DNA of 45,480 nucleotides, counting the filler, from Sphacelaria rigidula (Eukaryota), in the NCBI GenBank assembly GCA_964200075.2. It is 2 parts of 2 records of this genome, joined end to end, with 100 filler letters (N's around TTAATTAATTAA, not from the genome) between each part and the next. Parts side by side here need not be neighbours in the genome. Positions count along the whole stretch, not along the records: positions 1 to 22,692 come from CAXNAA020000317.1; 1 more part is not named here. The stretch is one strand, 5' to 3'. Below are positions 5,480-36,766 of the stretch, piece after piece; position 1 is the stretch's first letter, and every line of letters begins with the position of its first letter. The translations under genes were made by a program, and so were the position numbers. The notes beneath the pieces were generated by a model. The model was not told the origin of the DNA. It made no database searches and was given only the letters and a program-made list of their open reading frames with translations.

Positions 5480-7930
5480 AAAACGAGGTCCTCTCACAGG
5501 ACTCAAACACAAAAAAAGCGTAGGGGCGGCTCTCAACACACTATAAGGACCACATTCCCTTCGGTTTCGGACGGTGGGGGTATGTTCCGTTGCCCGCAAA
5601 CGAATTTTCAAATTCTCAGGTGCGCGCCAAACGGCCAGCCGCGTGGCCGAGCGGCCGAGAGAGCAGCACGCGACCCGCGAAATTGGCACGAGCAGAGACA
5701 CGGAACAAGCACCTTTCGTCTCCGAAGAGCACTGGTCTCGATCCGCTGCTGTCTCGCTGCTCCGTTGCGGTCTCCCAAGCTGTGGTGTGTGGGCTGCGAG
5801 ATCGGGTGTGTGAGGAGGGTGAGAGAGGGAATCCCTCGGATAGGAAATGCGGCGGGTTCAGGGAGAAAAATTGTTACGCTTCGGGCGGGTTGCGGCGGAA
5901 CCACCAACTCAGCCACTACTCGACACCAGGTTTCTCCGTTCGACACCGGAGTTGTTGCTATCGGTTCGTGCTGAACATAGCTAGCGCATCAGGACCAAGA
6001 CACGTCGTGGTAGAGCGTATGCGGAGCGAGGGGGCGGCAGCAAGAGCAGGTGGGTTTGTACCTTTCTTGGCCTTTCGAGACAGCACGGGAGAACGGGACA
6101 GCACCTTCCACCAACCATGCACCCCGTCATGGCCGATGTCGGAGAGGAACTGTGGAATGGGCGTGTACCTCTCACCGACCACGCCAACCCCTTCTCAACC
6201 AACGTCAAGCTGTACCTTCCACCAGCTATGAACCCCGTCTTGGCCGATTTCGGGGCAGCACGGGGTGGTAGCGTACCTTTCACAAACCACGTACCCCTTG
6301 TTGGCCGAATTCAGAGTAGCATTGTACACTGGGAGTGTACCTCTTGCCGCTACTGTTATACAGCCCCCCCCCCACACGAGCACATGGGGGGAGGTCTGCG
6401 TTCAAAAAAATATTCGAGCGGTCATGGGGGGTGTACACACCGGGGCCGCCGACAAGGCGGGGATGGGTGGTATCTAGAGTATATGTCCAGTCAGAAAAGC
6501 AGCTGCGTCGTAGAAAAATGAGGTTCGCGTACAGGCCGCAGAACTAAAAACCCAGGCGCAGGAAGTCGTCCTACATACAGTAGGAGCGCTCTCCTGTCAG
6601 TTTTAGGCCGTGGGGGATTGTCTCGTGATCCACACAATCGCTTCCGTGTTCTCAAATGCGCGGCAGCCGACCGTGTGGCCGTAGAGAGCAGTGTACACAT
6701 GCAGACGCGCACAACTATCGAAGGTAGACACGATCACTCACACAAACACACACACCTTTATCCTACTCAAAGCTTAGTCGTCGTCCTCCGCCGCCTGTCG
6801 CCTTTGCCAGTGTTTCCCCTCGAGCCCGTGGGCTGGGCTGCGTGTACGGCGGGTTGCAGAGGGGGTCCCGCGGATGGTAATTGCGGCGCGTTCAGTGGGA
6901 AAAAGTGTCGCGCTTCGTGCGGTTTGCGGCGGAATCACCAAATCAGCGATTACTCGTCACCAGGCAAGGTACGGTAATTGAGGAGGTAGGGAAGAGGTAC
7001 ACTAACCCCTATAACCCACCGACAAAAGGTAACTGTGTGAGGAGGTAAGGCTGAGGTACAGCTGACCCCTTTGATCCGCCAGCAAAGGTACGACAAGCGA
7101 GGAGTACAGCTGAGGTACAGCTAACCTCTAATATCTGTTACAAAAGTACACTGTGTGAGGAGGTAGGGATGACGTCCAGCTGACCCCTACGATGAACGAG
7201 GAGGTTTAGCTGGGGTACAGCCGACCCCCGATATTCGCCAGCAAAAGGTACGATGAGAGATGAGGTACAGCTGACCCTTATAATCGGCCAAAAAAGGTAC
7301 GATAAGCGAGGAGACAGGGATGCGGTACAGCTGACCCTTACAATCGGCCAACAAAGGTACGATAAGCGAGGAGACAGGGATGGGGTACAGCTGACCCTTA
7401 CAATCGGCCAACAAAAGGTACGATAAGCGAGGAGGTAGGGATGAGTACAGCTGACCCTTGTAATCGGCTGCGTCGGAGAAAAATGAGGTTCACGCATAGC
7501 TCGCAGAAATAAAAGCTCAGGTGCAGAAAGTCATCCTACACATTATAGAAGCACATTCTTCTTATCGGCTTTAAACCGTAGGGGAACGTCTCCTGTTCCA
7601 CACAATCGCTTCCGTGTTCTCAAATGCGCGGCAAGCCGCAGGGGAGTGGACGACAGCGTACACATGCAGACGAGCACTCCTGTCGAAGAGAGACAGGACC
7701 ACTCACACACACCCACCTCGAGTCTCCTCAAAGCTTGGTCGTGGTCCGCTGCTGCCGATGGCCTTTGTCAGTCTATCAGTCTATCCCTTCGTGTCCGTCG
7801 GCTGTGTGTGAGCGAGGTGGGAGAGGGGATCCCGCAGATAGAAATTGCGGCGGGTTCAGAGAGAAAAATTGTTACGCTTCGGGCGGTTTGCGGCGGAACC
7901 ACCAAATCAGCCACTACTCGACACCCGGTG
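5480..7930. repeat. Composite repeat: three copies of a ~450-bp unit (~5480-5930, 6502-6965, 7467-7930) with intervening short repeats
   Basis: Shared blocks such as cacaatcgcttccgtgttctcaaatgcgcggc and ttgcggcggaaccaccaaatcagccactactcgacacc. Confidence 0.85.
6980..7470 (+). repeat. ~60-bp tandem minisatellite, ~8 copies
   Basis: Unit gaggaggtagggatgaggtacagctgacccttacaatcggccaacaaaggtacgataagc; related inverted copies at ~6100-6310 and ~9215-9250. Confidence 0.9.
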
Positions 7931-8319
7931 CTCCGTTCGCACCGCAAAAGTCGATTGAGTTTGAACATGTCCTGGCCATACGCACCACAAAAACACCACA
8001 AGCAACCAACTCATCAATGACGGGTCGAGTCTGGACGGGGGGGCGTACTCATTTGTTGCTTGCCTTAGTCATTTGACCATTGACCACGCATCCCTTTCGA
8101 GACGGAGCACCGTTCCTACTCCTAATAGAGACACCTCCAACATTATGGCGCCCATTACTTTCAGACGACGGGGGGAACGAAGGAAATTCGGCGCAGACTG
8201 GAGCAACATGAGGACAGAAGCAGAGAGGAAGGGGCAACAATACGTATAACAAATAATCACATGTTCCGCTGATGTGAAATGGTGCTACTTTCCGGACGAT
8301 TAGTGTGTGTGTCTTTTCA

Positions 8320-11791: not shown

Positions 11792-11989
11792 TCACATACT
11801 CGCGAACGTGTCACTGTTGCATTTCCTAACCCATGCGCACTCTTCCCCTCGCCCACCCCTGTCAACGAGCTGCATGATGGTGTGGGAACTGCAGAAGGGA
11901 GAACTGCCCCGCATTCCATGCACCTCGAACTTCTTTATCACGTCCTTAAGTTCGTCGTAAGCGAATCCTTGCAGAGGGGTAGGCCTCTC
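11792..11989 (-). CDS. ROCO last exon
   Basis: ttcag|ERPTPLQGFAYDELKD...MQLVDRGGRGEECAWVRK...*. Confidence 0.82.
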   Translation of the reverse strand, partial: ERPTPLQGFAYDELKDVIKKFEVHGMRGSSPFCSSHTIMQLVDRGGRGEECAWVRKCNSDTFASM

Positions 11990-12218
11990 CTGAAAAGAGG
12001 GATAGCGAAGGAGTGGGTTGAGAGAAAAGGTCGGAAAGAAACAAATGGGGCGCAGTCTTTTCGCGCAACGCGTTGCCTGTCGTGCAACGGTAGGGCGACC
12101 GTCCATAGTATTGGGCTCGGTACCCACAATTACCTAATGGGAGATTGCGTGCTTCCTATCCGGACGGCCTCCGACAGACTCCAACGTAACACACCGCAAG
12201 CGCAAAAAAAAGCCTCAC

Positions 12219-12503
12219 ATTTCGTGTCCCATGCCCGTGCGCAGCAGCCTGCCGGAGCAGGTCCGCCGGCCTCTCGCTGTCTAGGTTCTCCCCGGCGATG
12301 CTCGCCATCGCCTCGACGCCCGAGCTAAGCGACTCCTCGACTAACTTGGACAAGGCACCGCCGGCTTTCGTCCCGAGCGCAGCCTCGAAGTTTACCAAAG
12401 GAAGTGCCAGGCCGCTGCACACGTTGAAAGCAATCGTAGCGAGAGCCAGCCCCACCTTCGCGAACGGCACCGTCTTCTTCGCCCAGTCCAACAACTCCTT
12501 CGC
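12219..12503 (-). CDS. ROCO C-terminal exon
   Basis: 285 nt, phase 0-0; AKELLDWAKKTVPFAKVGLALA... Confidence 0.85.
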
Positions 12504-12881
12504 CTGATCATACGGAGGAGGGTGTGGGCATCAGATGTCTAACTGAATTAGACCGGTTTCCCCGCAGAAATTAGTTTGAGGATCCAAACTACGGGTGCTT
12601 TCAAGCTACCACACGCCCTGAAAGCTACCCAAAATGAAACGACCTGAGAACCCCATCCGCCTCTTCTTGGAAATAAAATCACCAAGTACAGGGACGTGCA
12701 CAATTGAGAGAGTGAAGGGATGCTCGCATTGCTCAAGAGAAAAAAAATGTTGAAGTTGGAAAAAAGCGATAGATAGACATACGTAACCGGCCGTTGCAGT
12801 AGTGTGTTGTACAAAAAACAAAAAAATACCATCAAAGCGTTGCTTGTTGAACTGATTTCCCCGGCAAGGAGGGCGACTCAC

Positions 12882-13107
12882 CTCGTATCCTTGCCCCTTG
12901 GGCCCGCACTCGGCGAGGCTCGTGTCCTGCGCGCATAGGAAGAAAGCACGCAACTCTCGCGTCGCTTTCCCCTCGCCTTCTCGTTTCCTGCCGAGGCACC
13001 ACTTCCGCAGTCTGGCCGACCATTCATCGAACGGTCTTTCTCTTTCCTCGAGGAGTTTATCGCTCGCGGGGGCGGGCAGCACGCACACCAGGCGTGGGAT
13101 CGGCCAC
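12882..13107 (-). CDS. ROCO C-terminal exon
   Basis: ctcag|G TGG...; WPIPRLVCVLP...FFLCAQDTSLAECGPKGQGYE|gtgagt. Confidence 0.87.
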
Positions 13108-14195
13108 CTGAGCAATCAAGGAAAAGGTGCAATACGATTGCATTAGCCGAGGCACATGCAACCTCGGGCAGCGTGGTTTTCGTCCGAGATGTTTCCGTCT
13201 TTTTCGTTGCATCAACCAAGGTAGATTTTACGGTGTGATACGAGAACAAGCCGTGCGCGTAGGAGGCAAGAGATAGGCAATGGCCGTGACCGCTAAGCAG
13301 GGCGAGATCTGGGATATCCACACCGCAAAAACGGTCTGATGCGGCACTGATTGATGTCGCATGATCGCATTTTTTGCCCGTGCCGGCGCACTGCCTCGCA
13401 CAACATACGAACAACCGCGAATGCGGCTATTCGGCGCCAGAATAAGGAGCCAAAATAGCGATGGTGAGAATATCATCCTCCCCCCCCCGTTCGGGCTATT
13501 GTCCGGTGCAAATCTGTGAACGGGAATGCGAAGCTTTTCGCTATCCAGTTGATAGGGAAGTGCTTCATTTCCTGAAATATCACGCAGCCGAGCCGCTCAG
13601 CGGTACAGACACGAAGGGGAGGTGTGGTCCTCGTGGCTGAAGGCTGGTGAGCAATATGTTTGAGGGATTGAACCGAGCCCAAGTCAAGATGAAAACCTGC
13701 GGCTCAAATAAGGGGAAATGTTACTTATATGTTTCACCGCAGCTGTCCAGCTGAAACGGAGTTTTGTAGCGCTCCTGACAGCTATTTCAATTAAACATCA
13801 TGACCGGATATTCACACGATTGAAGTCAAATTCGTTCGCTCTTGTTTCAAGCCTTGGGCTCAACGAAAGCCAGCATCTCAAACTGTTAAGGTACGTTTTA
13901 TGTTGCGGGACGCTGCGTCTACTGTGTTAAAATAGATCAAGAGGTGGCCGACCTTGAGCCAAAACAAAATGCATGAAAAACAACGAAGCTGAGGCTGGGT
14001 GGTGATATTTTTGAACTCACCAAAGATGGGCGATGGCATTGGCTGATCGCATCGCGGGGATTAGCTAAAACAAAAGGCGTGATTTCCGCCGTCTGTGTGA
14101 TGAGGACCACCCCACCTCAGAAAGCGAAGAGTAGTTGAGTCATCTCTACATCTATCCTAAGACCCCGAGATAAAGCTTATCCTTCGATTGCTCAC

Positions 14196-15690
14196 CGTAC
14201 GAAGGCCATGTCCTCTCTCATGATCCTATCCATCCTGAACTTCACGTTCATCTGGTCCCTGAAGACGCTCGAGACGCGCTCCACCAAGGCTTTGAGCTCG
14301 CCATCCGAGGAAAAAGCCGTCTCTTCTTCTTCACCACGGATGAGACCAAGGCCGGGGAACCCGTACCTGGCGTCGTTGATCAGCTCGCTAATCTGGTCGC
14401 CCACGTCGTGCAAGACGCTCCTTGCACTCTCGTCATGTACACCACCCCTTGCGTGGCATTCGATCCACGAGGTCCCATCATCAGTAGCCCGAAGCTCGTA
14501 CAGCAACACCAGGTGGTTCTTGAAGCTGAAACAGACCCCACGCTTCCAGCACGCCGTGATGCGCCCTTCCCCGCGTCCACACCATGCGAGAAGCCGAGGC
14601 ACCAGTTCGGGAGGCACGGCGTGCGCACCAATAAGCTTGAGCTTCTGTGAATAAATCGCACACCCGGGCTTCCGCTCCAGAAGCTTTGCTGGGTCCACTT
14701 CTGTCCCGGCTTCCTTTGGGAGACAGCTTGCGACAACGTAGCAGTCCGGTATGAAGTCATCGTAACCGTCACGAACTCGAAACATGAACCGGACATCAAG
14801 CAAGCTGCCCACCATCACGCTGATGTCCTCCTCCGACAAGTTGAGAGGCGGCGCTTGTTGACTTGCCTGGCCCACTTCCATGTCTCGCTGCCACAGAAAT
14901 TCCAGGTAGTCCTTGCTCACTTCTCCAGCCTGGACGAACCTCTTGTGCTGGTGCGAGAGTGGAAGGAGCTTTGGCCTTACTGATGACGATGCTTCCATCT
15001 CTTTGACCACCTCTGCCTGCTGCACGGGTCTACCTTCACGCCGACAATGCGGCGCACCACGTCAGCAAACCGGGACGGGTTCACGTGAATGATGATGTTG
15101 CTAGTTCCACCTTTCTGTTGAGCTCCTCCGCCTCCGTCAACCCGAGCCAGAAGAATCGCACCGTGAGCCTCATTTAGCTCGATGGCTTCGCGGAACACCC
15201 GTCTTTCCTGTCTTTGAAAAAACAATTTGGAAACCCGAGTGAACACGGTTTGCTGTTCGACAAAAAGAGACAGGGCCTCTGAGAACCCAATGAACGTTCG
15301 GGCTTCTTTGTGAGCCCCCCTCCCGAAGCCTTCGCGATACCTCGGCTGGAGTACCGTCCGAATCACCCAAATCCGCTCCCCGACGAACTGCTTCCAGCGT
15401 TGCGATGGCTGGCAAATAAGGCTCAGGTACGATGCTCATGACCGATGCGAACGAGTACCCCTCGTATCCGCTGTAGGCAATGTGCTCGATACGCTTCTGA
15501 AGCAGGTCAACATCGTGCCCTTCCGAGGAAGCGAGGTTCAGCGCAAGAACCTCGTCGTCCATCACAACGCGAAGGGGTTGGAAGCGGCGGTAGTCCTCCG
15601 AGTCCCGCTGTCCCTTCCCAACATCTTTTTCCCAGCGGTCTTTGGCCGACGCACATTCGGAGCGGATCCGATTCACGACCTTGGCCACAT
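14196..15690 (-). CDS. ROCO large exon: COR-like region (two frameshifts)
   Basis: Three overlapping ORFs (15170-15688, 14977-15366, 14192-15025) join into one protein via +1 at the C6 run 15315-15320 and -1 at ~15027. Confidence 0.85.
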
Positions 15691-16984
15691 CTGTTGATCA
15701 CGGACACAAGGGGTTATTTTGAACAACAGCGAACTTAAGTACTTCGTGTCGTAAGGTCATCGGAAGCTGTACTGAAGCTGATCGCTTGGAAATCGACCGC
15801 CCGCAGGATTTTTTTACGAGAGATGCGCGGACGAGAGTAACGGAATCGACAAGTGAAATCCGCTGGGTTGAGAATCGAACCTTCTAGGATGCCACTCATT
15901 TGGCTTGCTCAACTGTAGTCATTAGAGCCCCCGCCGCCTCAACACTCCCAACACTACCGAAAGAATACGAGAGAGCGCACGGGCCGGAGAGATCGCACCC
16001 CCGTGCGAAATAGAGTCAAGAACGAAGGGATCTTAGTCGCTATCGCACGAGTATCGGAGAGGTGCGATCTCTCCGATACCGAATGGTTCCGGGGCACTTG
16101 TTTTAGCTGCTGGTGTATCGCGGTTTTATCGTGAGTGAGCTCCACTGCTGTGTAGTTCTTGGGGAGCCGTCGAGTATCACATGCTTAGAACACTCGGAAC
16201 ACAGGATACTGCCATTTGGTTCCTTCGCATAATTTATGCATTCAACCACTCACGCAGAAAATCAAATGTGTCTTGACTTTCGTTAACCTATTCAGTATCG
16301 CGCGTATCGGAGATATGGCACCCGGGTGCGATAAAATGTAATTTGATTTTCGCACGGGGATCGGAGAGACTGTACGAATCGAAATATATCGAACCCCCCC
16401 TCCGATGAAAAGTGAAGAACGGAATCATTTGAAAAACGATCGCACCCCCGTGCGTTTTCTCGCATTCTTACGGCATACATTTAGCCATTGGCTCTGCCAC
16501 TAAATGTACACAGCGCGTTCACGCGGGACCCGATAGCTTCCATCACTCTGTTTCCGTTCCGCGGAACTTGATCAGGCGGAGTCAAGCATGCGAAGTGCGG
16601 CCTTACCGACGATGGCATCCAATACTGGGCGGTTGACTCACGATTAACAAAAAATAAAACTAGTCTCACTCAAAGCATACGTGGCTTGGAATCCCGGCGC
16701 ACGTGAGTTATTTCTCACTTCAAGTCTAGCAGTGGAGAGCGCTCGTTCGTGTGTACACAGTTCTAAGGGAGGAGACTGTTCAACTCTTCTAGTGGTGAAA
16801 CTGAAGGGATTACAGGGATAGACCTCGGATAGGCAGGTGGGGGCCCCAGGCAGACAGGACCGTTCTACGTGATCCCGGATTGGAACTCCCCGGCAGAAAA
16901 GCTGCGAGTGCTGGTCAAATGGGACGGGGGGCGGGAAAGGACAAGGGTACATCACAACAGTAACAGTTCGCCCCCACGGCCTAC

Positions 16985-17195
16985 CTCTCTTGAAGCCATC
17001 CTTTCGCGCTCTGGACTCGGCAAGATTCGATCCAAACAAATCGCTGTGTGTTCCCACGAGCAAAACCACGGCACCAGGGACTCTAGACTGAAGAATGTCA
17101 AGCCACTGCTCGAGCGCATCCTCCGGCGATTTCTTCACCGAACACGCATACAAGTCCACTACCAGGATGAGCAGAGCGCCTGCAGTGAGGAACAT
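16985..17195 (-). CDS. ROCO exon: ROC C-half
   Basis: cag|MFLTAGALLILVVDL...QWLDILQSRVPGAVVLLVGTHSD...G|gtag. Confidence 0.9.
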
Positions 17196-17367
17196 CTGGA
17201 TAACAGGCGGGCAGCGTCAAGGCAAGGGCGAGAGCATATGCGTAGTTGCCGTGAGCTTCTCAAAAGGGACAGAGAACGCTATCACGATACTTCAAAGTAT
17301 CCTATCTAGTCGTATGTACATGGCGGCAAAACGTTAGTCGTTGTTGGCTGTGTGTCAAACCTCCCAC

Positions 17368-17763
17368 CTGGTGCGTGTCGTAGTATTTGCCCAGCAAAAT
17401 CCCACAGGCTCACGTCCAGCGCGACGTTTGGCAACCTTTCCCCTGTGACGGGGCTGGACTCGAGCTTGATGTCCCTGATCTCCACGCCTATCGTGCGCTC
17501 CTCAAGTTCCGGGAGGCGAGAACTGAATCGGTCTTCGAGCCGGCCGGCAATGGTGGTCTTGCCTGCTTCGCCCAATCCCACCAATACAACCGTGAGGCGG
17601 TTGGACCATGTCCTGCCGTAGTCGTCCAAGTCTCTGAGGAACGAAACCGCATGGTCCATGCCCTTCGCCATCACACTGGCTGGTGGCTCCTTCCAGGGAT
17701 TGCCAGAGGTGGAGACATTCGTCGTTCTTGCAGCAAATCCTTCCGCCGCCGCTCTGGCAAATA
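17368..17763 (-). CDS. ROCO exon: ROC GTPase N-half (frameshift at ~17386)
   Basis: GNPWKEPP, VVLVGLGEAGKTT, ERTIGVEI; WDFAGQ is followed by one extra base before YYDTHQ|gt. Confidence 0.88.
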
Positions 17764-18553
17764 CTGACGAGCACAAACGGGCCGAAGCAAGGTGGAAGAA
17801 GGGGTTTGATTCTTACGGAATCGTTTCTTCCGCCGGGACCTCAGGGCGCAAAAGTCCAAGCTACCACCTTTGTGTAAACTGAATCTCGGCAGGCAGGCGA
17901 AAGAGCAACATCGCGGTTGACTAAAACCTAGGAAGCACTTTGTCAGAGTCGGTCCTGAAAAAAGCTGACGTGCAAATTTTGCGGTAAACGCTGACAAATT
18001 AAAGATACCCAAGCGACCGCTGAATTTCGTGATTGTTGAGATACTCGTGAGTGGTCGCGGATGTGTGCGTTGGTGGGTCAAGAACACTCACGCTTTGTTT
18101 TTGTTTTTAATGTTTCGTTTATTTCTCACAACCAAGTGAGAGGGACACAGACGCGCACATCCCAGACCAAGTAAGACCACCAATCCGCATCTTGAAAATG
18201 CCTCGAAATTACCATGAGAATAATTGCTGCTCTGACCGCGTCGCATTTGTACAGCGCTGCTTCCGCTTGCGGTATGCTGCCACAAGAGAGCCGTTCATTG
18301 AGTTTCCCGCAGATGCACGCCATACAATAGGAACACCTCCTTTGCGTGCTCATGGATGGCCGGTCCTCCTCCTGCCGACACCAACTGCGAACAATAGATT
18401 ACCCTGCTCATCCACGCGGGAGAAAAACATACGTTTTCTCCCCGGCGTCTAGAACGCCTACTAACCCACGGTGGGTGAGTAGGTGGGTGTTCTTGAGAGC
18501 GGGGAATTATTTGTTTTTGCCCGCTTAACTCGTATTTGTTTTTCTGCTTGCAG

Positions 18554-18625
18554 GTCCCATCCCCGCGGAGCTAGGGAAGCTTGGGGCCCTTCTGGAACTT
18601 AGGCTGTGGGGCAACGAGCTGGGTG
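18554..18625 (+). other. Intact antisense 72-nt LRR exon module (GPIPAELGKLGALLELRLWGNELG), inverted relative to the host gene
   Basis: ttgcag| ... G|gtgagt; 72 nt; phase 1-1; no stops; polypyrimidine tract intact. Confidence 0.92.
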
Positions 18626-18776
18626 GTGAGTTTTCTCAACTGGAAAGTCACTTGAGTCAATTTTCGGCTTCCATAGAAGATGTGTCCTGCGTACGCGTAG
18701 GCAGGATTCATGCTCGTTCCTCAGCTGAATTCAAAATATATAAAAATGAGTAATATGTCTGATTCTCTGGACTCAC

Positions 18777-18848
18777 CATCCAAATTGTTGAAGCTGAGGT
18801 CGACGGCCACCAAGGAGTGGAGATCTCCTAGCTGCGGCGGAATTTGCC
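18777..18848 (-). CDS. Sense 72-nt LRR exon (GQIPPQLGDLHSLVAVDLSFNNLD)
   Basis: ctcgcag| ... G|gtgagt; exactly one 24-aa LRR; phase 1-1. Confidence 0.92.
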
Positions 18849-19027
18849 CTGCGAGTAAGGGAGCAAACACGACTTCAGCGGGGAATAACGAAAAATATTT
18901 TCCCTGCTCCTGGAAGGCTACTCACCCACGCGAGTAGGTGTTCTACACGGCATAGGCAAAAAATATGTCGAGAAGCCGGGAGATTTTTAACAACTCCCCG
19001 CCGACTTCGTTTTCTTTTTGGCTGCAG

Positions 19028-19083
19028 GCCTTCCAGCTTCACAACACTGAGGCTCCTCTTCCTTGAAAAAAAACAGTTGAGTG
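19028..19083 (+). pseudogene. Decayed antisense LRR exon (56 nt; ...TLRLLFLEKKQLSG)
   Basis: ctgcag| ... G|gtgagt boundaries; LRR-like 3' half; 16 nt shorter than the 72-nt module. Confidence 0.75.
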
Positions 19084-19499
19084 GTGAGTCACACGAAAAA
19101 CGCGAGTTCCTGGTTTTCTGAGCTCAAAACGCGGGCGCACAACCACTTTGACATGCGGAATTTTAACAACATCACGCTGTGCCGCGGCAGTTAGGAAGTC
19201 TCAGCTCGGTGCATGCGGAAACAACAGGCCGGAGAAAAATAAGAACTCTGCGGAAAAGCAAGACCACTGTTACAAAAGCCTGTTTTATACATGGGTGCGA
19301 GGAAGATGTTTCAGAAAAACAACGCTTGGGATTTACCCGGGAAGGGGAACACGATAATAGGCCGTTGAGCGGGGCGTCTTCGGATGTCGAAGAGACAAGT
19401 CTCCCTGATTTGAAAACTGCCAAAATCCCCACGATTTCACACCGCGAGACAAATACACCGTTGATTTCACCACACAGCGTTCGCGACGTTTCCCCAGGC

Positions 19500-19988
19500 A
19501 TGGCTGCGAAAAGCCACGGCGGATGGATGTCAGCAAGGAAACCAACCGCCAAGCCTACCGGACCCGTGCGGAACGGATTCGTGGTCGAGATCGCTCCAGA
19601 GTACGACAAAAGACGCATACGAGCCTTGCAAAACAAAAGATACCGAAGGTCGTCTGTGTACCAGCAGCACTTGAAAGCCAGGAAAATTGATGTGGTGTAC
19701 AGGTGGCGCGTGTTCCAGGAGCAGGCTAAAAGGCGGAATATCAAAGTGTCGATTAGCTTTGACGAATACAGCAGCATCGTGCGCACAGCGTGCTGGTACT
19801 GCGGCGACTTCACATACAAGGGGTATTCAGGCGTCGACCGCGTGCAGACCGCGGGCACGTACCAGAAGGACGACGTTGTGGCTTCCTGTAAAACTTGCAA
19901 TCTTATGAAAGGATCACTTTCGGTCCACGAATTCCTGGGAAAGGTCAAGCACATCGCAAGAGCGCAACAAGTCACGTCCGTAGGGTAG
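19500..19988 (+). CDS. Intronless HNH-like (His-Me finger) endonuclease of viral/phage type, nested antisense in ROCO intron 1
   Basis: AKRRNIKVSISFDEY...CWYCG...GVDRV...TY..DDVV.SCKTCNLMKG..S..EFL matches the CxYC/GxDR/CxxCNxMK HNH family. First in-frame ATG at 19500; the frame is open upstream to ~19179. Confidence 0.8.
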   Translation: MAAKSHGGWMSARKPTAKPTGPVRNGFVVEIAPEYDKRRIRALQNKRYRRSSVYQQHLKARKIDVVYRWRVFQEQAKRRNIKVSISFDEYSSIVRTACWYCGDFTYKGYSGVDRVQTAGTYQKDDVVASCKTCNLMKGSLSVHEFLGKVKHIARAQQVTSVG

Positions 19989-20005
19989 GCCTTGAAATAA
20001 AGTAC

Positions 20006-20180
20006 CTTTGAGATTGTTGCCGCCCAGAGAGAGCCTCACGACGCGGCCGTCGTCGTTGACTTCGACTCCGAGCCAACCTTTGATCGGGGCATCCGTGCCC
20101 CAATTGGTGTTGTTGTTCCAATTAGCTCCACCGGTCGACCGATGCAGGACAAGCAGTACGTCACGATCGGCCGAAGCCAT
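20006..20180 (-). CDS. ROCO exon 1: LRR N-terminal cap
   Basis: ATG at 20180; 175 nt ending AAA G|gtact (phase 1). Confidence 0.9.
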
Positions 20181-21892
20181 GGTCGAGAGAGGACCTGTGA
20201 GCATTGAAGGAGGGGCGTGCGGGACAAAACGAAAATATAGTGTCGGCGTTTGGCGAAATCGTTTTCTGTCGGGGTAGGGTGAAAAGCATTTTGGAATTAT
20301 GGAATGGCTTGCGCGAAAAACCATCTTGATCGAAATACAAACGCGTGTCGTCACTGTTGTAGTGTTGTATTTTGCGTAGATATCTGCGCATTGCAGGAGC
20401 ATCACTCTCGTCATCACGAGGTGAAGCCCGACAATGGCCACTTGGCTTTGGGGTCTGGCTTGATGGCATTGGTCTTTGATTGATTATGCCTCACCGTTTC
20501 AGGTGTTAGATGATTGGCATACTTCCCCTTTTCTTTCGGTCACGAGTTCCGTTTGACATGGTTCATGTATGACATGCCAAGGAGGTGTGTCATTTACGCA
20601 TTATGGTTACAGGAACGGAATGGATACTGGTGTCGAAGGAGCAGGGAGAGGGGGGCAAAGAGGGCGGGAATATATTGCGTGGTCTGCTTCTGTCCGTGGA
20701 ACGAAACACCGTAGTTAGTTACTCGCGGCGTGGATTTAGCACCAAGAAGCACACCTGTGCGCTTCACTAGTTTAGTTTCCGTCGTTCGGTCTCGTCGTGT
20801 TCTACTTTCCTTCGACTGAGTGTCTTGCGGAGTTGTGTACACCACCGTTACAGCAGTGTTGGTCAGCGACGCCCAGTCGCTTTTTGCTTTACGCTACGTG
20901 TCCTGGATTGATCCGCGAGAGCGCTGAGGAACGGGTCGCATTAAAATATGATGTGATCATAAGGAAACCAAGCCCAAGCCTACATTTGTGTGTGTGCACG
21001 TCTGAGATGAACGCACTGTGTTAAACGAAGTGAAACAGCGTTGGCATCACCATCCCGATAACGAGAGAGTCCTGTATCCCCTTGACACACACGTTGCCGG
21101 GAGTCGACAATGTTACCAGAAATGCTGCAGCGTGGTAACCCACGAGAGGTGAACGGTGTTCCACCCTGTACCCGAACAACCTTGTGGAAGGTCAATGCTG
21201 ATAAACGCTGTACCCCAACAGCCCTGTGCAAGTTTGATGATGCCTACTCTCGCTAAGTCCTACCCCTGTACACGGGATCGCCCTTCCATGGTTCCAACCC
21301 CAAACACCTTGCAGCCAGAGCCGAATGGGTACGTGTGCAGCCACCGTGGGTAGTCACCGTCGAGGGAAGAGGGCTACACCGCCACCGGTGCGCGTGTTCC
21401 GCGCGTGGTCAAGACGCTTTCTGTCGAAAGCCCCTGCGAGGTGTGTTTGGACTCGGATTTTATTTTTCACCAGGGCTAAATAATACGGAGTACTATTTTT
21501 TATTGCGTGCGTGAAGCACACTTGTATCCATTATCTTGTGAAAACGATGATGGCTTGATGCTTGTCCAAATTTTGCTGGGCTGGACTTCCCGCCCGTGCA
21601 CACCCGTGCACACATTTTTTTTTGTCGTGCACTTCCCTGGCCGTGCACCACCGGAGCGACCACGAATGGTCTGTGGAAATTTTCTCCGGGTTGCAGTCCT
21701 TAGTTTCGTCGACACACGCAGTTCTTGGATCGTGTCGCATCTCCTCCGGATGTATTTTTGTGTGTGTGAGTGTTCGTGTATGCATGCATCAAGTTAAAAA
21801 ACGAGCCGCGCGCCCTGCGTCCGACCACGTAGTATTTCCCACCGTTTTACGGGAACGAACGCGGGGTACCTTCACAGCAGGTCCGCCCCCGG

Positions 21893-22692: not shown

Positions 22693-22792
22693 NNNNNNNN
22701 NNNNNNNNNNNNNNNNNNNNNNNNNNNNNNNNNNNNTTAATTAATTAANNNNNNNNNNNNNNNNNNNNNNNNNNNNNNNNNNNNNNNNNNNN
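22693..22792. other. Assembly gap with artificial TTAATTAATTAA linker
   Basis: 44 N + TTAATTAATTAA (22737-22748) + 44 N, 100 nt in total. Confidence 0.95.
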
Positions 22793-23323: not shown

Positions 23324-23522
23324 CTTTCGATTAGCCATGTCAAGGAGGTATGACGACAGCGCGGTAGTAGTGCGGTCACACGTGTATTCCGGCGTCTGCA
23401 TCTCATGTCCCAGGAAGACATTCAAAGTTGGAAACGCCTGTGACGCGAGAACGGCATGACGTGGGAGGTTTTTGACGAGCCTCGTGAGAGCAGATCATCA
23501 CAACAACAACAACAACAACAGC

Positions 23523-23566
<44 letters not shown>

Positions 23567-24034
23567 CCACAACAAAAGACTCCTTGCCACTATTTTGAAG
23601 CGAGCACACAAGTGCTTCTCCTCCACGCAGTTGACCGTGGCGATGCTGACGCCTCTAGAGGCTGCGTGTGATTCCATGGCATCTGCAGTCTCGTACAAAG
23701 TCGGAAGTAGCCGCTGACACCATATGCACCTGCCGGTACGGGGGTAGTGAGGGATGGGGGGGGATCAGGGGATGCGACAGCACATTACTCTACGTTCGAT
23801 GAGCGAGTTCGGGAAGGATATGACATTTTAACCGTCAAGAAACCACTGGGCGTGTAGCATATGGGCATGTCCCGCTTGACACCACCACACATGCTTCTCT
23901 GGCTCGCGCGCCGCAGGACTTGAAACGTACCAGGGTGCATAGAATACAACAAGCGTCACGTCGTGGTCTGTCAGCCAGCCGTCGAAGGTCTGCGATGTTA
24001 GCTCCATAACTCCCAAGCCGTCCCGGTGTGGCTC
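23324..24034 (-). CDS. Thioredoxin/PDI domain exons (PDI-C/ERGIC-type-like), copy 1: 24034-23931, 23729-23588, 23437-23324
   Basis: Spliced product: EPHRDGLGVMELTSQTFDGWLTDHDVTLVVFYAPW|CIWCQRLLP...IATVNCVEEKHLCARFKIV|AFPTLNVF...EYTCDRTTTALSSYL. Phases are consistent. Confidence 0.85.
23500..23574. repeat. (CAA)n microsatellite inside the thioredoxin intron
   Basis: About 25 CAA units; a shorter degenerate version lies in the paralogous intron at 45170-45215. Confidence 0.95.
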
Positions 24035-35830: not shown

Positions 35831-36766
35831 AGGCCTGTGTTTGGGCGCTCGGCCGGAGCGATCTCAGTCAAGGCATATGTACTAGTGGTGATATTCAAGT
35901 AATGATAGTGCGACTGACGCCTCAACGCTCAGGGAGAAGAAGGTTGCCGCGATAGCCAAATATATCTATGTACACTTCCCTAGGGTGTACGGGGCACCTT
36001 GGCGCCAGGCGCGGCACGTGGTGAGCTCCAACAAAAAAACTGCTGCAGAAAGGAGGCAAGTTAGGTAGTGATGGAGAAATAGAGAGGTAGGTGTCTCCAA
36101 CAGCGAGAGAGGTGTGGACGGCCAAGAAGGAGACTCGAGACGGGCTGAAGACAAAATGAAAAAATTCCTTTCAAGTCCGCAGAAAGAAAACGGAAAAAAA
36201 AACCCTGTAGTGATCACAGAGAAACGGAAGAATCAAATGTTGCGAAACGGGGGTCAAACGGCTGGGAGCGTCACTGGGCGCGAAAGGAGGTCAAACGGCT
36301 GGAAACGTCACTGGTTCCAGAGTAAATTCCGCGCGAATGGCTGGCGAAGTCACTCGTGAAGTGGTGCTGAAGTGGCAGAGAAGAGAGTATGATAATCCGA
36401 GAGAGGTAAAGTTGTCAGTGGTAAAAGTGGTAGAAAAGGTGAGATTCCGAGGGAGGGGTAGAGGTGCGAAAGTCGCAGAAAATTGCGAAATTCTGAATAA
36501 ATAAATCGACGAAAGCGCAAATTCCCAACAGTAAATAGGAGATGCTGTTCATCACAGAGAAACGGAAGAATCAAATACTGGCCGCTGGTGCGTCGGACTT
36601 CGGAGGAAGGNNNNNNNNNNAGGAAGGGTGCGCTGTCAGGCCCCGTAATTGTTGCACCTGCATCCAGAGACCCGGAATGTGGACAAACTTAATGAATAAG
36701 AATAATACAAGGTGTTTGGCGCTTCGCGTCACCGCTCAATGGAGCGATTGCCAAGGCGAATGTAAA

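Follow-up and report, generated by a model that had tools for sequence, protein, structure and literature searches.

A stretch of 45,480 nucleotides (nt) of Sphacelaria rigidula DNA (assembly GCA_964200075.2), referred to below as the window, carries on its minus strand a ROCO gene that runs from 20180 down to 11795. Four leucine-rich repeat (LRR) modules, A to D, lie between its first and third exons, and they do not all face the same way. We conclude that this is probably a decaying ROCO locus, in which exon cassettes flipped in the germline have been taken up as exons by an antisense transcript and in which no programmed switching takes place. Modules A and C are spliced into a + strand RNA that continues into an exon with an HNH/EndoVII-like open reading frame (ORF). 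The cassettes of A and B have one orientation in three assemblies of the organism of the window (organism A) and the opposite orientation in a related organism (organism B). The reading frame of the ROCO gene is interrupted by a frameshift.

Four coded runs were compared with the window over 17200-20400, as contigs, a form in which rare variants drop out. X3 is another sample of organism A, X4 is an algal metagenome from another study and X6 comes from organism B. X9 is RNA by guess only, and the case for RNA is made by its GT..AG joints and by cover that is confined to exons.

Flipped LRR modules and the + strand RNA

The modules and the elements around them are the following.

18440..18553, + strand: intron-like 5' flank of A, homologue of the B flank; contains the palindrome at 18457-18483
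18554..18625, + strand: LRR module A, type I LRR exon of 72 nt, intact, on the strand opposite to the ROCO gene; spliced into the + strand RNA
18685..18706, no strand: A/B tail-to-tail palindrome, 22 nt, 91%; its centre is the breakpoint in both rearranged X6 contigs
18777..18848, - strand: LRR module B, intact 72-nt type I LRR exon, ROCO sense; putative exon 2
18849..18960, - strand: 5' flank of B, homologue of the A flank
19028..19083, + strand: module C, LRR exon reduced to 56 nt by decay, its LRR frame interrupted by a stop; the + strand RNA has it as an alternative exon, with donors at 19083 and 19075
19179..19210, + strand: remnant D, what is left of an LRR exon, its 5' half (PRQLGSLS), joined to part of a flank (18982-19001 versus 19158-19177, 80%)

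All four modules stand where the original prediction, made from the sequence of the window, had placed them. A reads PIPAELGKLGALLELRLWGNELG and is bordered by ttgcag and gtgagt; B reads QIPPQLGDLHSLVAVDLSFNNLD and is bordered by tcgcag and gtgagt. The phase-1 frame is open in both. A two-strand scan of the entire 45,480-base window for open LRR-pattern exons of the form AG, 72 nt, GT identified three matches, A, B and 18575-18646, the last being an offset overlap of A with non-consensus splice sites. The scan and a check of phases bear out the claim that A and B are interchangeable: both have the same phase on either side and the same cag and gtgagt borders, and A would fit the phase used by exon 1, B and exon 3. 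Both also conform to the type I LRR exon (72 nt, GxxPxxLxxxxxLxxLxLxxNxLx) as defined in the passages of Zambounis et al. 2012 (PMC3341825) on these exons, with V at one L position of B. C (56 nt, bordered by ctgcag and gtgagt) keeps the LxLxxNxLxG end of the repeat and has lost ~16 nt. It fails the type I definition, as does the fragment D. A 21-nt degenerate pattern relates D to the start of B, matching only (-)18820-18840 and (+)19182-19202 in the window and nothing in 100 shuffles. A, C and D are on the + strand between ROCO exons 1 and 3, which places them in the noncoding-strand intronic class of Zambounis et al. 2012.

The 5' flanks of A and B, (+)18440-18553 and (-)18849-18960, are identical at 78 of 103 positions in an ungapped alignment. 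The score of 36.5 compares with 5.2 ± 2.0 in 300 shuffles (maximum 12.5; z 15.4), in agreement with the common 5' flank of ~100 base pairs proposed earlier. The exons are less alike than the flanks (47/64, z 3.8). Partial flank copies had also been proposed at the decayed modules, and were found: the flank of C resembles those of A and B less strongly (z 4.4-4.5), and D is fused to its flank fragment. The 3' flanks of A and B have no significant likeness (z 1.7), so that the 18-22 nt motif described below is all that would mark the palindrome halves as ends of tandem units. A three-unit profile run over the whole 45-kilobase (kb) window gave no further copy of the unit, save a partial inverted match within flank A.

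A and B face each other tail to tail, as had been predicted, about a palindrome of 18-22 nt whose centre is at 18695/18696. The longest exact word common to the two units is the 12-nt splice donor motif. In flank A, the palindrome at 18457-18483 pairs the donor motif with its reverse complement across a spacer of 1 nt (arms of 13 nt, 12/13 paired). It is expected 0.01 times per shuffle of the 1.3-kb region, and the real sequence of the window has only one other of the kind. An older flip may have left it as a scar.

Would the inverted A/B pair, within a pre-mRNA of either strand, act as an imperfect RNA hairpin, either modulating splicing or giving small RNAs against LRR exons? Region 18440-18960 folds to -218.1 kcal/mol, compared with -171.1 ± 6.5 kcal/mol for 100 shuffles (z -7.3), and one passage of Zambounis et al. 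2012 (PMC3341825) calls reshuffled LRR exons likely microRNA targets. However, such a z follows from any inverted duplication, the arms are ~70% complementary, and no Rfam family matches within 17000-21000. A role of this kind seems unlikely.

The transcript that takes up the modules is seen in X9. Cover by this run occupies 12 of 30 bins, essentially 18552-18626, 19027-19083 and 19498-20400, with GT..AG joints from 18625 to 19028, from 18625 to 19498, from 19075 to 19498 and from 19083 to 19498. One contig (record 18) has a 228-nt loose end before 18552, of which the final 30 nt are exactly 6937-6966 (+), beside a gtacgg donor. Together, the joints and the loose end indicate a + strand RNA made of an exon ending at 6968, then A, then optionally C, then an exon from 19498. 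Another contig (record 24, 1479 nt) begins at 19498 and extends beyond 20400. The RNA splices A and C at the LRR modules' own splice sites, and its 11.6-kb intron holds the entire Roc-COR body, antisense. The antisense modules had been thought silent; the splicing of A and C in X9, if the run is RNA as guessed, contradicts this. X9 has no cover on 17200-18483 or on module B and says nothing about expression of the ROCO gene. The two outer exons of the + strand RNA are as follows.

6739..6968, + strand: upstream exon (5' limit provisional), within copy 2 of a ~1-kb tandem repeat
19498..20400, + strand: last exon seen, with an HNH/EndoVII-like ORF of 162 residues at 19500-19988, then antisense across ROCO exon 1

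The tandem repeat occupies 5556-8000 (+). It has three copies of ~1 kb with start spacings of ~1034 and ~964 nt, and an array of ~60-nt repeats lies between copies, at 6966-7463.

All three isoforms have the same sole long ORF, which starts at the ATG at 19500, 2 nt past the acceptor, and ends at 19988 (162 residues). Module A is in frame with this ORF, but the frame is closed by a stop 31 codons upstream, and the interval has no ATG. C has an in-frame stop. Therefore, A and C are most likely 5' untranslated exons of the + strand RNA. Two other possibilities were considered. A protein-coding LRR gene on the + strand was rejected in view of the in-frame stop in C and of the lack of an in-frame ATG before A. 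An in-frame LRR-HNH fusion found no support either, as there is no ATG in frame via A and none of 141 candidates is longer or fused.

Opposite cassette orientations in two related organisms

In organism A, the arrangement of the window recurs in both other assemblies. A single X3 contig (record 2) covers 17539-19915 with 0 differences, and a single X4 contig (record 6) covers 17200-19956 with 4 differences and 0 gaps. Both are collinear with the window. That the antisense module could stem from a mis-joined or collapsed repeat is hence extremely improbable: N runs do occur elsewhere in the window, at 22693-22736, 22749-22792 and 36611-36620, and denote assembly gaps, but contigs of two other samples, one of them from another study, span the region. 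The original prediction had proposed to look for both orientations in one individual and among strains. Within organism A a single one was observed, in the window, X3 and X4, by means of contigs, which rare variants could escape.

In organism B, X6 contigs that are ~98% identical to the window and have a depth of 162-165 show altered adjacencies. Record 14 runs from 19045 down to 18854, then from 18695 up to 18852, then through AA to 18068 and upward. Record 13 runs from 18425 up to 18696 and then from 18039 downward. No letters are common to the two sides of these joints, which are therefore not graph artefacts of a repeat. Written in the orientation of the window, the X6 order is outer left, 18696 down to 18068, TT, 18852 down to 18695, outer right. 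Segments 18068-18696 and 18695-18852 are thus each flipped in place, so that A is in the ROCO sense and B is antisense, the reverse of the window. X6 also has at least 3 differences within module A (18583, 18587 and 18600; two amino-acid changes, one silent).

It follows that orientation decides which LRR faces the ROCO strand, as the idea of an LRR-swapping inversion required. The single inversion of ~18470-18930 put forward for it does not account for X6, since it would also have exchanged the order of A and B. The X6 junctions have AA as filler, lack 1 nt and differ by 28 nt at 18040-18067. These features suggest end joining rather than conservative recombination.

The data support cassette flipping over evolutionary time. 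The best named relative of the ROCO protein is P0045, a protein of 1043 residues from Laminaria digitata (a kelp, not Ectocarpus), where the order is exon 1, a B-like LRR, an A-like LRR and VFARAAAEGF. We infer an ancestor with the order exon 1, B, A, Roc and a single sense throughout, such as P0045 has, followed by one flip of the A segment in the lineage of the window and one of the B segment in that of X6. Alternatively, one event might have sufficed, via an excised circle reopened at the palindrome.

The same data bear on whether the cassettes are inverted in an active and programmed manner, somatically or reversibly as in a shufflon, each flip changing the LRR of the ROCO messenger RNA (mRNA). 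Three of the four orientation states are found over three sequences: both cassettes in sense in P0045 (deduced from the protein), A inverted in the window and B in X6. The break at 18695/18696 recurs, breakpoints lie at cassette edges, with 18852/18854 placed 4 nt upstream of the acceptor of B, and the 785-nt block of X6 would be bounded by the palindrome halves as inverted ends of ~18 nt. On the other hand, the window, X3 and X4 are collinear and have one orientation. The flanks are 76% identical and lack any long exact inverted repeat, the longest shared word being 12 nt; no inverted repeat was reported between 18040-18068 and 18696, nor any short conserved crossover site at the segment ends. 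None of 53 stop-to-stop ORFs of at least 130 residues has a recombinase, integrase or transposase domain in Pfam (Roc and Arf were the only domains returned), a search that could miss intron-split genes. The filler, the 1-nt loss and the 28-nt difference fit end joining and not conservative site-specific recombination. Organism A has a broken ROCO frame, and in X6 exon 1 gives way to telomere-type repeats after 20012. Finally, a 2024 study of the ROCOs of four brown algae (PMC11378527) states, in the part concerned with this question, that no somatic recombinant ROCO locus or site-specific recombinase has been reported, and prefers alternative splicing. An active switch, as the original prediction had it, is very unlikely.

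Probable decay of the ROCO gene

Apart from module B, the ROCO gene consists of the following parts.

20006..20180, - strand: ROCO exon 1, ATG at 20180; LRR N-terminal cap and first LRR; 175 nt, ends in phase 1; 49% identity to P0045 residues 1-59
17368..17763, - strand: ROCO exon 3, VFARAAAEGF, linker and Roc G1-G3; 5-nt deletion at 17385/17386
11795..17195, - strand: remaining ROCO body, Roc C-terminal half, COR-like region and C-terminus; found by tblastn of P0045, 77-95% identity per block

Exon 1, B and exon 3 are in phase with each other, and B is 63% identical to the first LRR of P0045. To judge from sequence, B would be used by the ROCO gene as exon 2. The Roc domain is recognized by Pfam PF08477 (E 1.8e-6, 28.6 bits for a cut-off of 27). 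Two ORFs checked for COR have no Pfam COR match; the part after Roc is 77-95% identical to P0045 throughout. Identity per block is in the same range over Roc and falls to 49% over exon 1. Such near-identity except at the LRR end is the pattern that Zambounis et al. give for recently duplicated ROCO genes.

Five nucleotides after WDFAGQ are absent from the window. They are present in X6 (5 letters behind 17385, in the sole X6 contig there) and are those that P0045 requires (GQRAYYDTHQ). X3 and X4 have the same deletion as the window. In the homology-guided ROCO model, the frame shifts and a stop is reached at codon 247. The locus is therefore likely a pseudogene, as far as its coding sequence tells.

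In X6, a contig with the HNH-like ORF runs past 20012, inside exon 1, into TTAGGG repeats with the G-rich strand outward. These repeats may mark the end of a chromosome or else form an interstitial telomere tract, and cover beyond 20012 is of lower depth only. The receptor looks defunct in both organisms. With the ROCO frame broken in organism A and exon 1 replaced by telomere-type repeats in X6, there is little to diversify.

A decaying locus with germline flips could have arisen as follows. Single-exon LRR cassettes would have been duplicated along with their short introns, and some would later have been flipped in place by germline rearrangement, the breaks presumably being repaired by end joining, with no programmed switching involved. 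A flipped cassette would retain its splice signals (AG, 72 nt, GT). With the locus also transcribed on the + strand, the flipped A and C would then become exons of the antisense RNA, which would begin in the repeat near 6.9 kb, skip the Roc-COR body and end in the HNH/EndoVII-like exon.

Several observations weigh against this explanation. Both flips break within 1-2 nt of 18695/18696, a coincidence that random breakage does not predict. X6 has further contigs here at other depths (~88-253), and a second arrangement or a paralogue is possible. Since contigs drop rare variants, organism A could have a minority orientation. The RNA label of X9 is a guess, and of four similar runs (X9-X12) X9 alone was compared with the window; X10-X12 have a similar share of words (0.25-0.26). 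An in-frame alternative donor within exon 3 could skip the frameshift, at the expense of the DxxGQ motif. Lastly, the orthology of A with the second LRR of P0045 is weak (60%, versus 56% to the first LRR), and exon 1 is 49% identical.

The HNH/EndoVII-like protein and known systems

The 162-residue protein encoded by the last exon of the + strand RNA matches PHROG 1035 (endonuclease VII) with an E-value of 3.9e-10. Of 14 PHROG rows in all, the 13 others have E-values up to 0.14 and are mostly nuclease families. The order of motifs is CWYC...VDRV...N...CKTCN. Both CxxC pairs and the Asn of the beta-beta-alpha-metal motif are present and conserved. This order (CxxC...D-x...N...CxxCN..K) and the likeness to phage EndoVII and HNH families are shared with HNH/EndoVII nucleases. 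The protein differs from them in that Arg (VDRV) occupies the site where the HNH D-H pair has its general-base His, and in a Pfam HNH (PF01844) score of 14.4 bits, under the gathering threshold of 21.4. The Arg is near-invariant in 23 aligned members and is also found in distant relatives, of which 2 out of 10 exceed the Pfam HNH threshold. A profile search of the PDB gave weak rows only (E 0.16-0.42); in one of these, a weak match (E 0.42), VDRV aligns to MDH of chain 4h9d_A. The AlphaFold model is poor, with a mean predicted local distance difference test (pLDDT) score of 57.5 and values below 50 for residues 101-138, the motif region.

Among 49 candidates, 43 homologues were retained at E <= 1e-3. 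All named ones are brown-algal (Hapterophycus, Pylaiella, Scytosiphon, Laminaria and Ectocarpus species). The proteins of the family have ~120-250 residues and are often encoded in several copies. The window has one copy of the ORF. At 19474-19512 and 19927-19962, where the ORF starts and where its C-terminus is encoded, X3, X4 and X9 have extra contigs with unrelated loose ends. This pile-up at the ends of the ORF points to paralogues at other places in the genome, of which one or more are transcribed. Genomic loci of other copies were sought in viral contigs and in metagenome contigs (68 and 125 pattern matches in the latter), and none was confirmed. A wider profile search yielded 22,548 superfamily representatives at E <= 1e-3, in many of which the domain occurs twice. 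In a protein atlas, the neighbours of the protein are phage and giant-virus clusters, which serve as leads only.

Three of the 43 homologues (P0009, P0036 and P0042) have predicted tails that extend at least 88 nt into sequence homologous to 20006-20186, that is, antisense ROCO exon 1. The tails of P0033 and P0041 reach 20018-20030. The pairing of an HNH-like ORF with a ROCO-type first exon thus recurs elsewhere.

This pairing raises the possibility that the protein cuts the palindromes or cruciforms formed by inverted cassettes and thereby drives flipping and LRR exon shuffling. The ORF does lie inside ROCO intron 1, 290 nt from remnant D, on an mRNA built of flipped LRR exons. The PHROG match relates it to nuclease families, and the family, multi-copy in several brown algae, adjoins antisense exon 1 homologues in the three cases above. 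Yet nearly all of the 23 aligned members, and the distant relatives, have Arg for the catalytic His, the Pfam score is below threshold, and the motif region is modeled with low confidence. Moreover, the huge superfamily is mostly not tied to LRR genes, and the linkage could reflect co-duplication with ROCO genes. We find it improbable that the protein is the agent of flipping. There is a still slimmer chance that LRR shuffling as a whole consists of precise cassette flips at palindromic junctions, started by a nested HNH/EndoVII-like nuclease or DNA-binding factor, which would then be the missing 'recombinase' of the Zambounis hypothesis. In the literature searched, no function is described for the HNH-like family, nothing was found that combines HNH endonuclease, brown alga and LRR, and papers on HNH and Ectocarpus are not on ROCO by title.

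Coming back to germline flips in a decaying locus, several known systems offer comparisons. In bacterial shufflons and invertible switches (R64 Rci, Hin/Gin-type), inversion changes the segment that is joined to a constant part. Oppositely oriented alternative coding segments are common to these systems and to the window. In contrast, here no recombinase gene was found, short conserved crossover repeats are lacking, and no sample was seen to mix orientations; filler and small losses mark the junctions, and the setting is one of eukaryotic exons and introns. In lamprey variable lymphocyte receptors, a system cited by Zambounis et al. 2012, flanking LRR cassettes, which are not exons with splice sites, are copied in somatically. 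LRR modules beside a receptor gene as possible donors are again common to both, here in the form of spliced exons. Neither a somatic product nor a deaminase was seen at the present locus, no search aimed at them having been made. Natural antisense transcripts and exonisation illustrate how good splice sites on the 'wrong' strand become an exon once transcribed. Compared with exonised inverted elements, the pieces here are the host gene's own flipped coding exons, with the full open LRR frame kept.

The closest parallel is found in Ectocarpus. According to the relevant passages of Zambounis et al. 2012 (PMC3341825), ROCO introns hold noncoding LRRs recognised by their reverse orientation; intact noncoding-strand LRR exons with conserved splice sites are present at 19 Ectocarpus ROCO loci, only in introns of the LRR domain, and excised noncoding exons are a possible reservoir to be recruited at the next recombination. 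One-LRR exons, which the original prediction cited as known for brown-algal ROCO genes, are in that paper, as are reverse-strand copies and the reservoir idea. With the Ectocarpus cases, the present locus shares 72-nt one-LRR exons, intact or decayed reverse copies confined to introns of the LRR domain, and conserved splice sites. It differs in that the reverse copies are spliced into an antisense RNA encoding another protein, the frame of the host ROCO gene is broken, the same two cassettes are opposite in a related organism, and the best named match is from a kelp. The word 'antisense' is absent from PMC3341825 and PMC11378527. This kind of feature is therefore already known; what is new is the antisense exonisation of flipped LRR exons into an HNH-like mRNA, together with opposite cassette states in two relatives.

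In brown algae, ROCO genes are the leading candidates for pathogen receptors, and the mechanism of LRR exon shuffling has been open since 2012. Opposite cassettes and a common breakpoint in two close relatives make the rate and mechanism of flipping measurable across strains. That noncoding-strand LRR exons can be exons of an antisense RNA provides another reason for their intact splice sites, and such exons complicate ROCO gene models and expression counts. The conserved HNH-like family adjoining ROCO first exons is a candidate factor. Should flipping amount to no more than neutral churn in a dying gene, the locus would be an unremarkable case of a pattern already described.

Elsewhere in the window, 23444-23764 is a long simple repeat of CAG/CTG type that reads as poly-Q, poly-N or poly-L in several frames.

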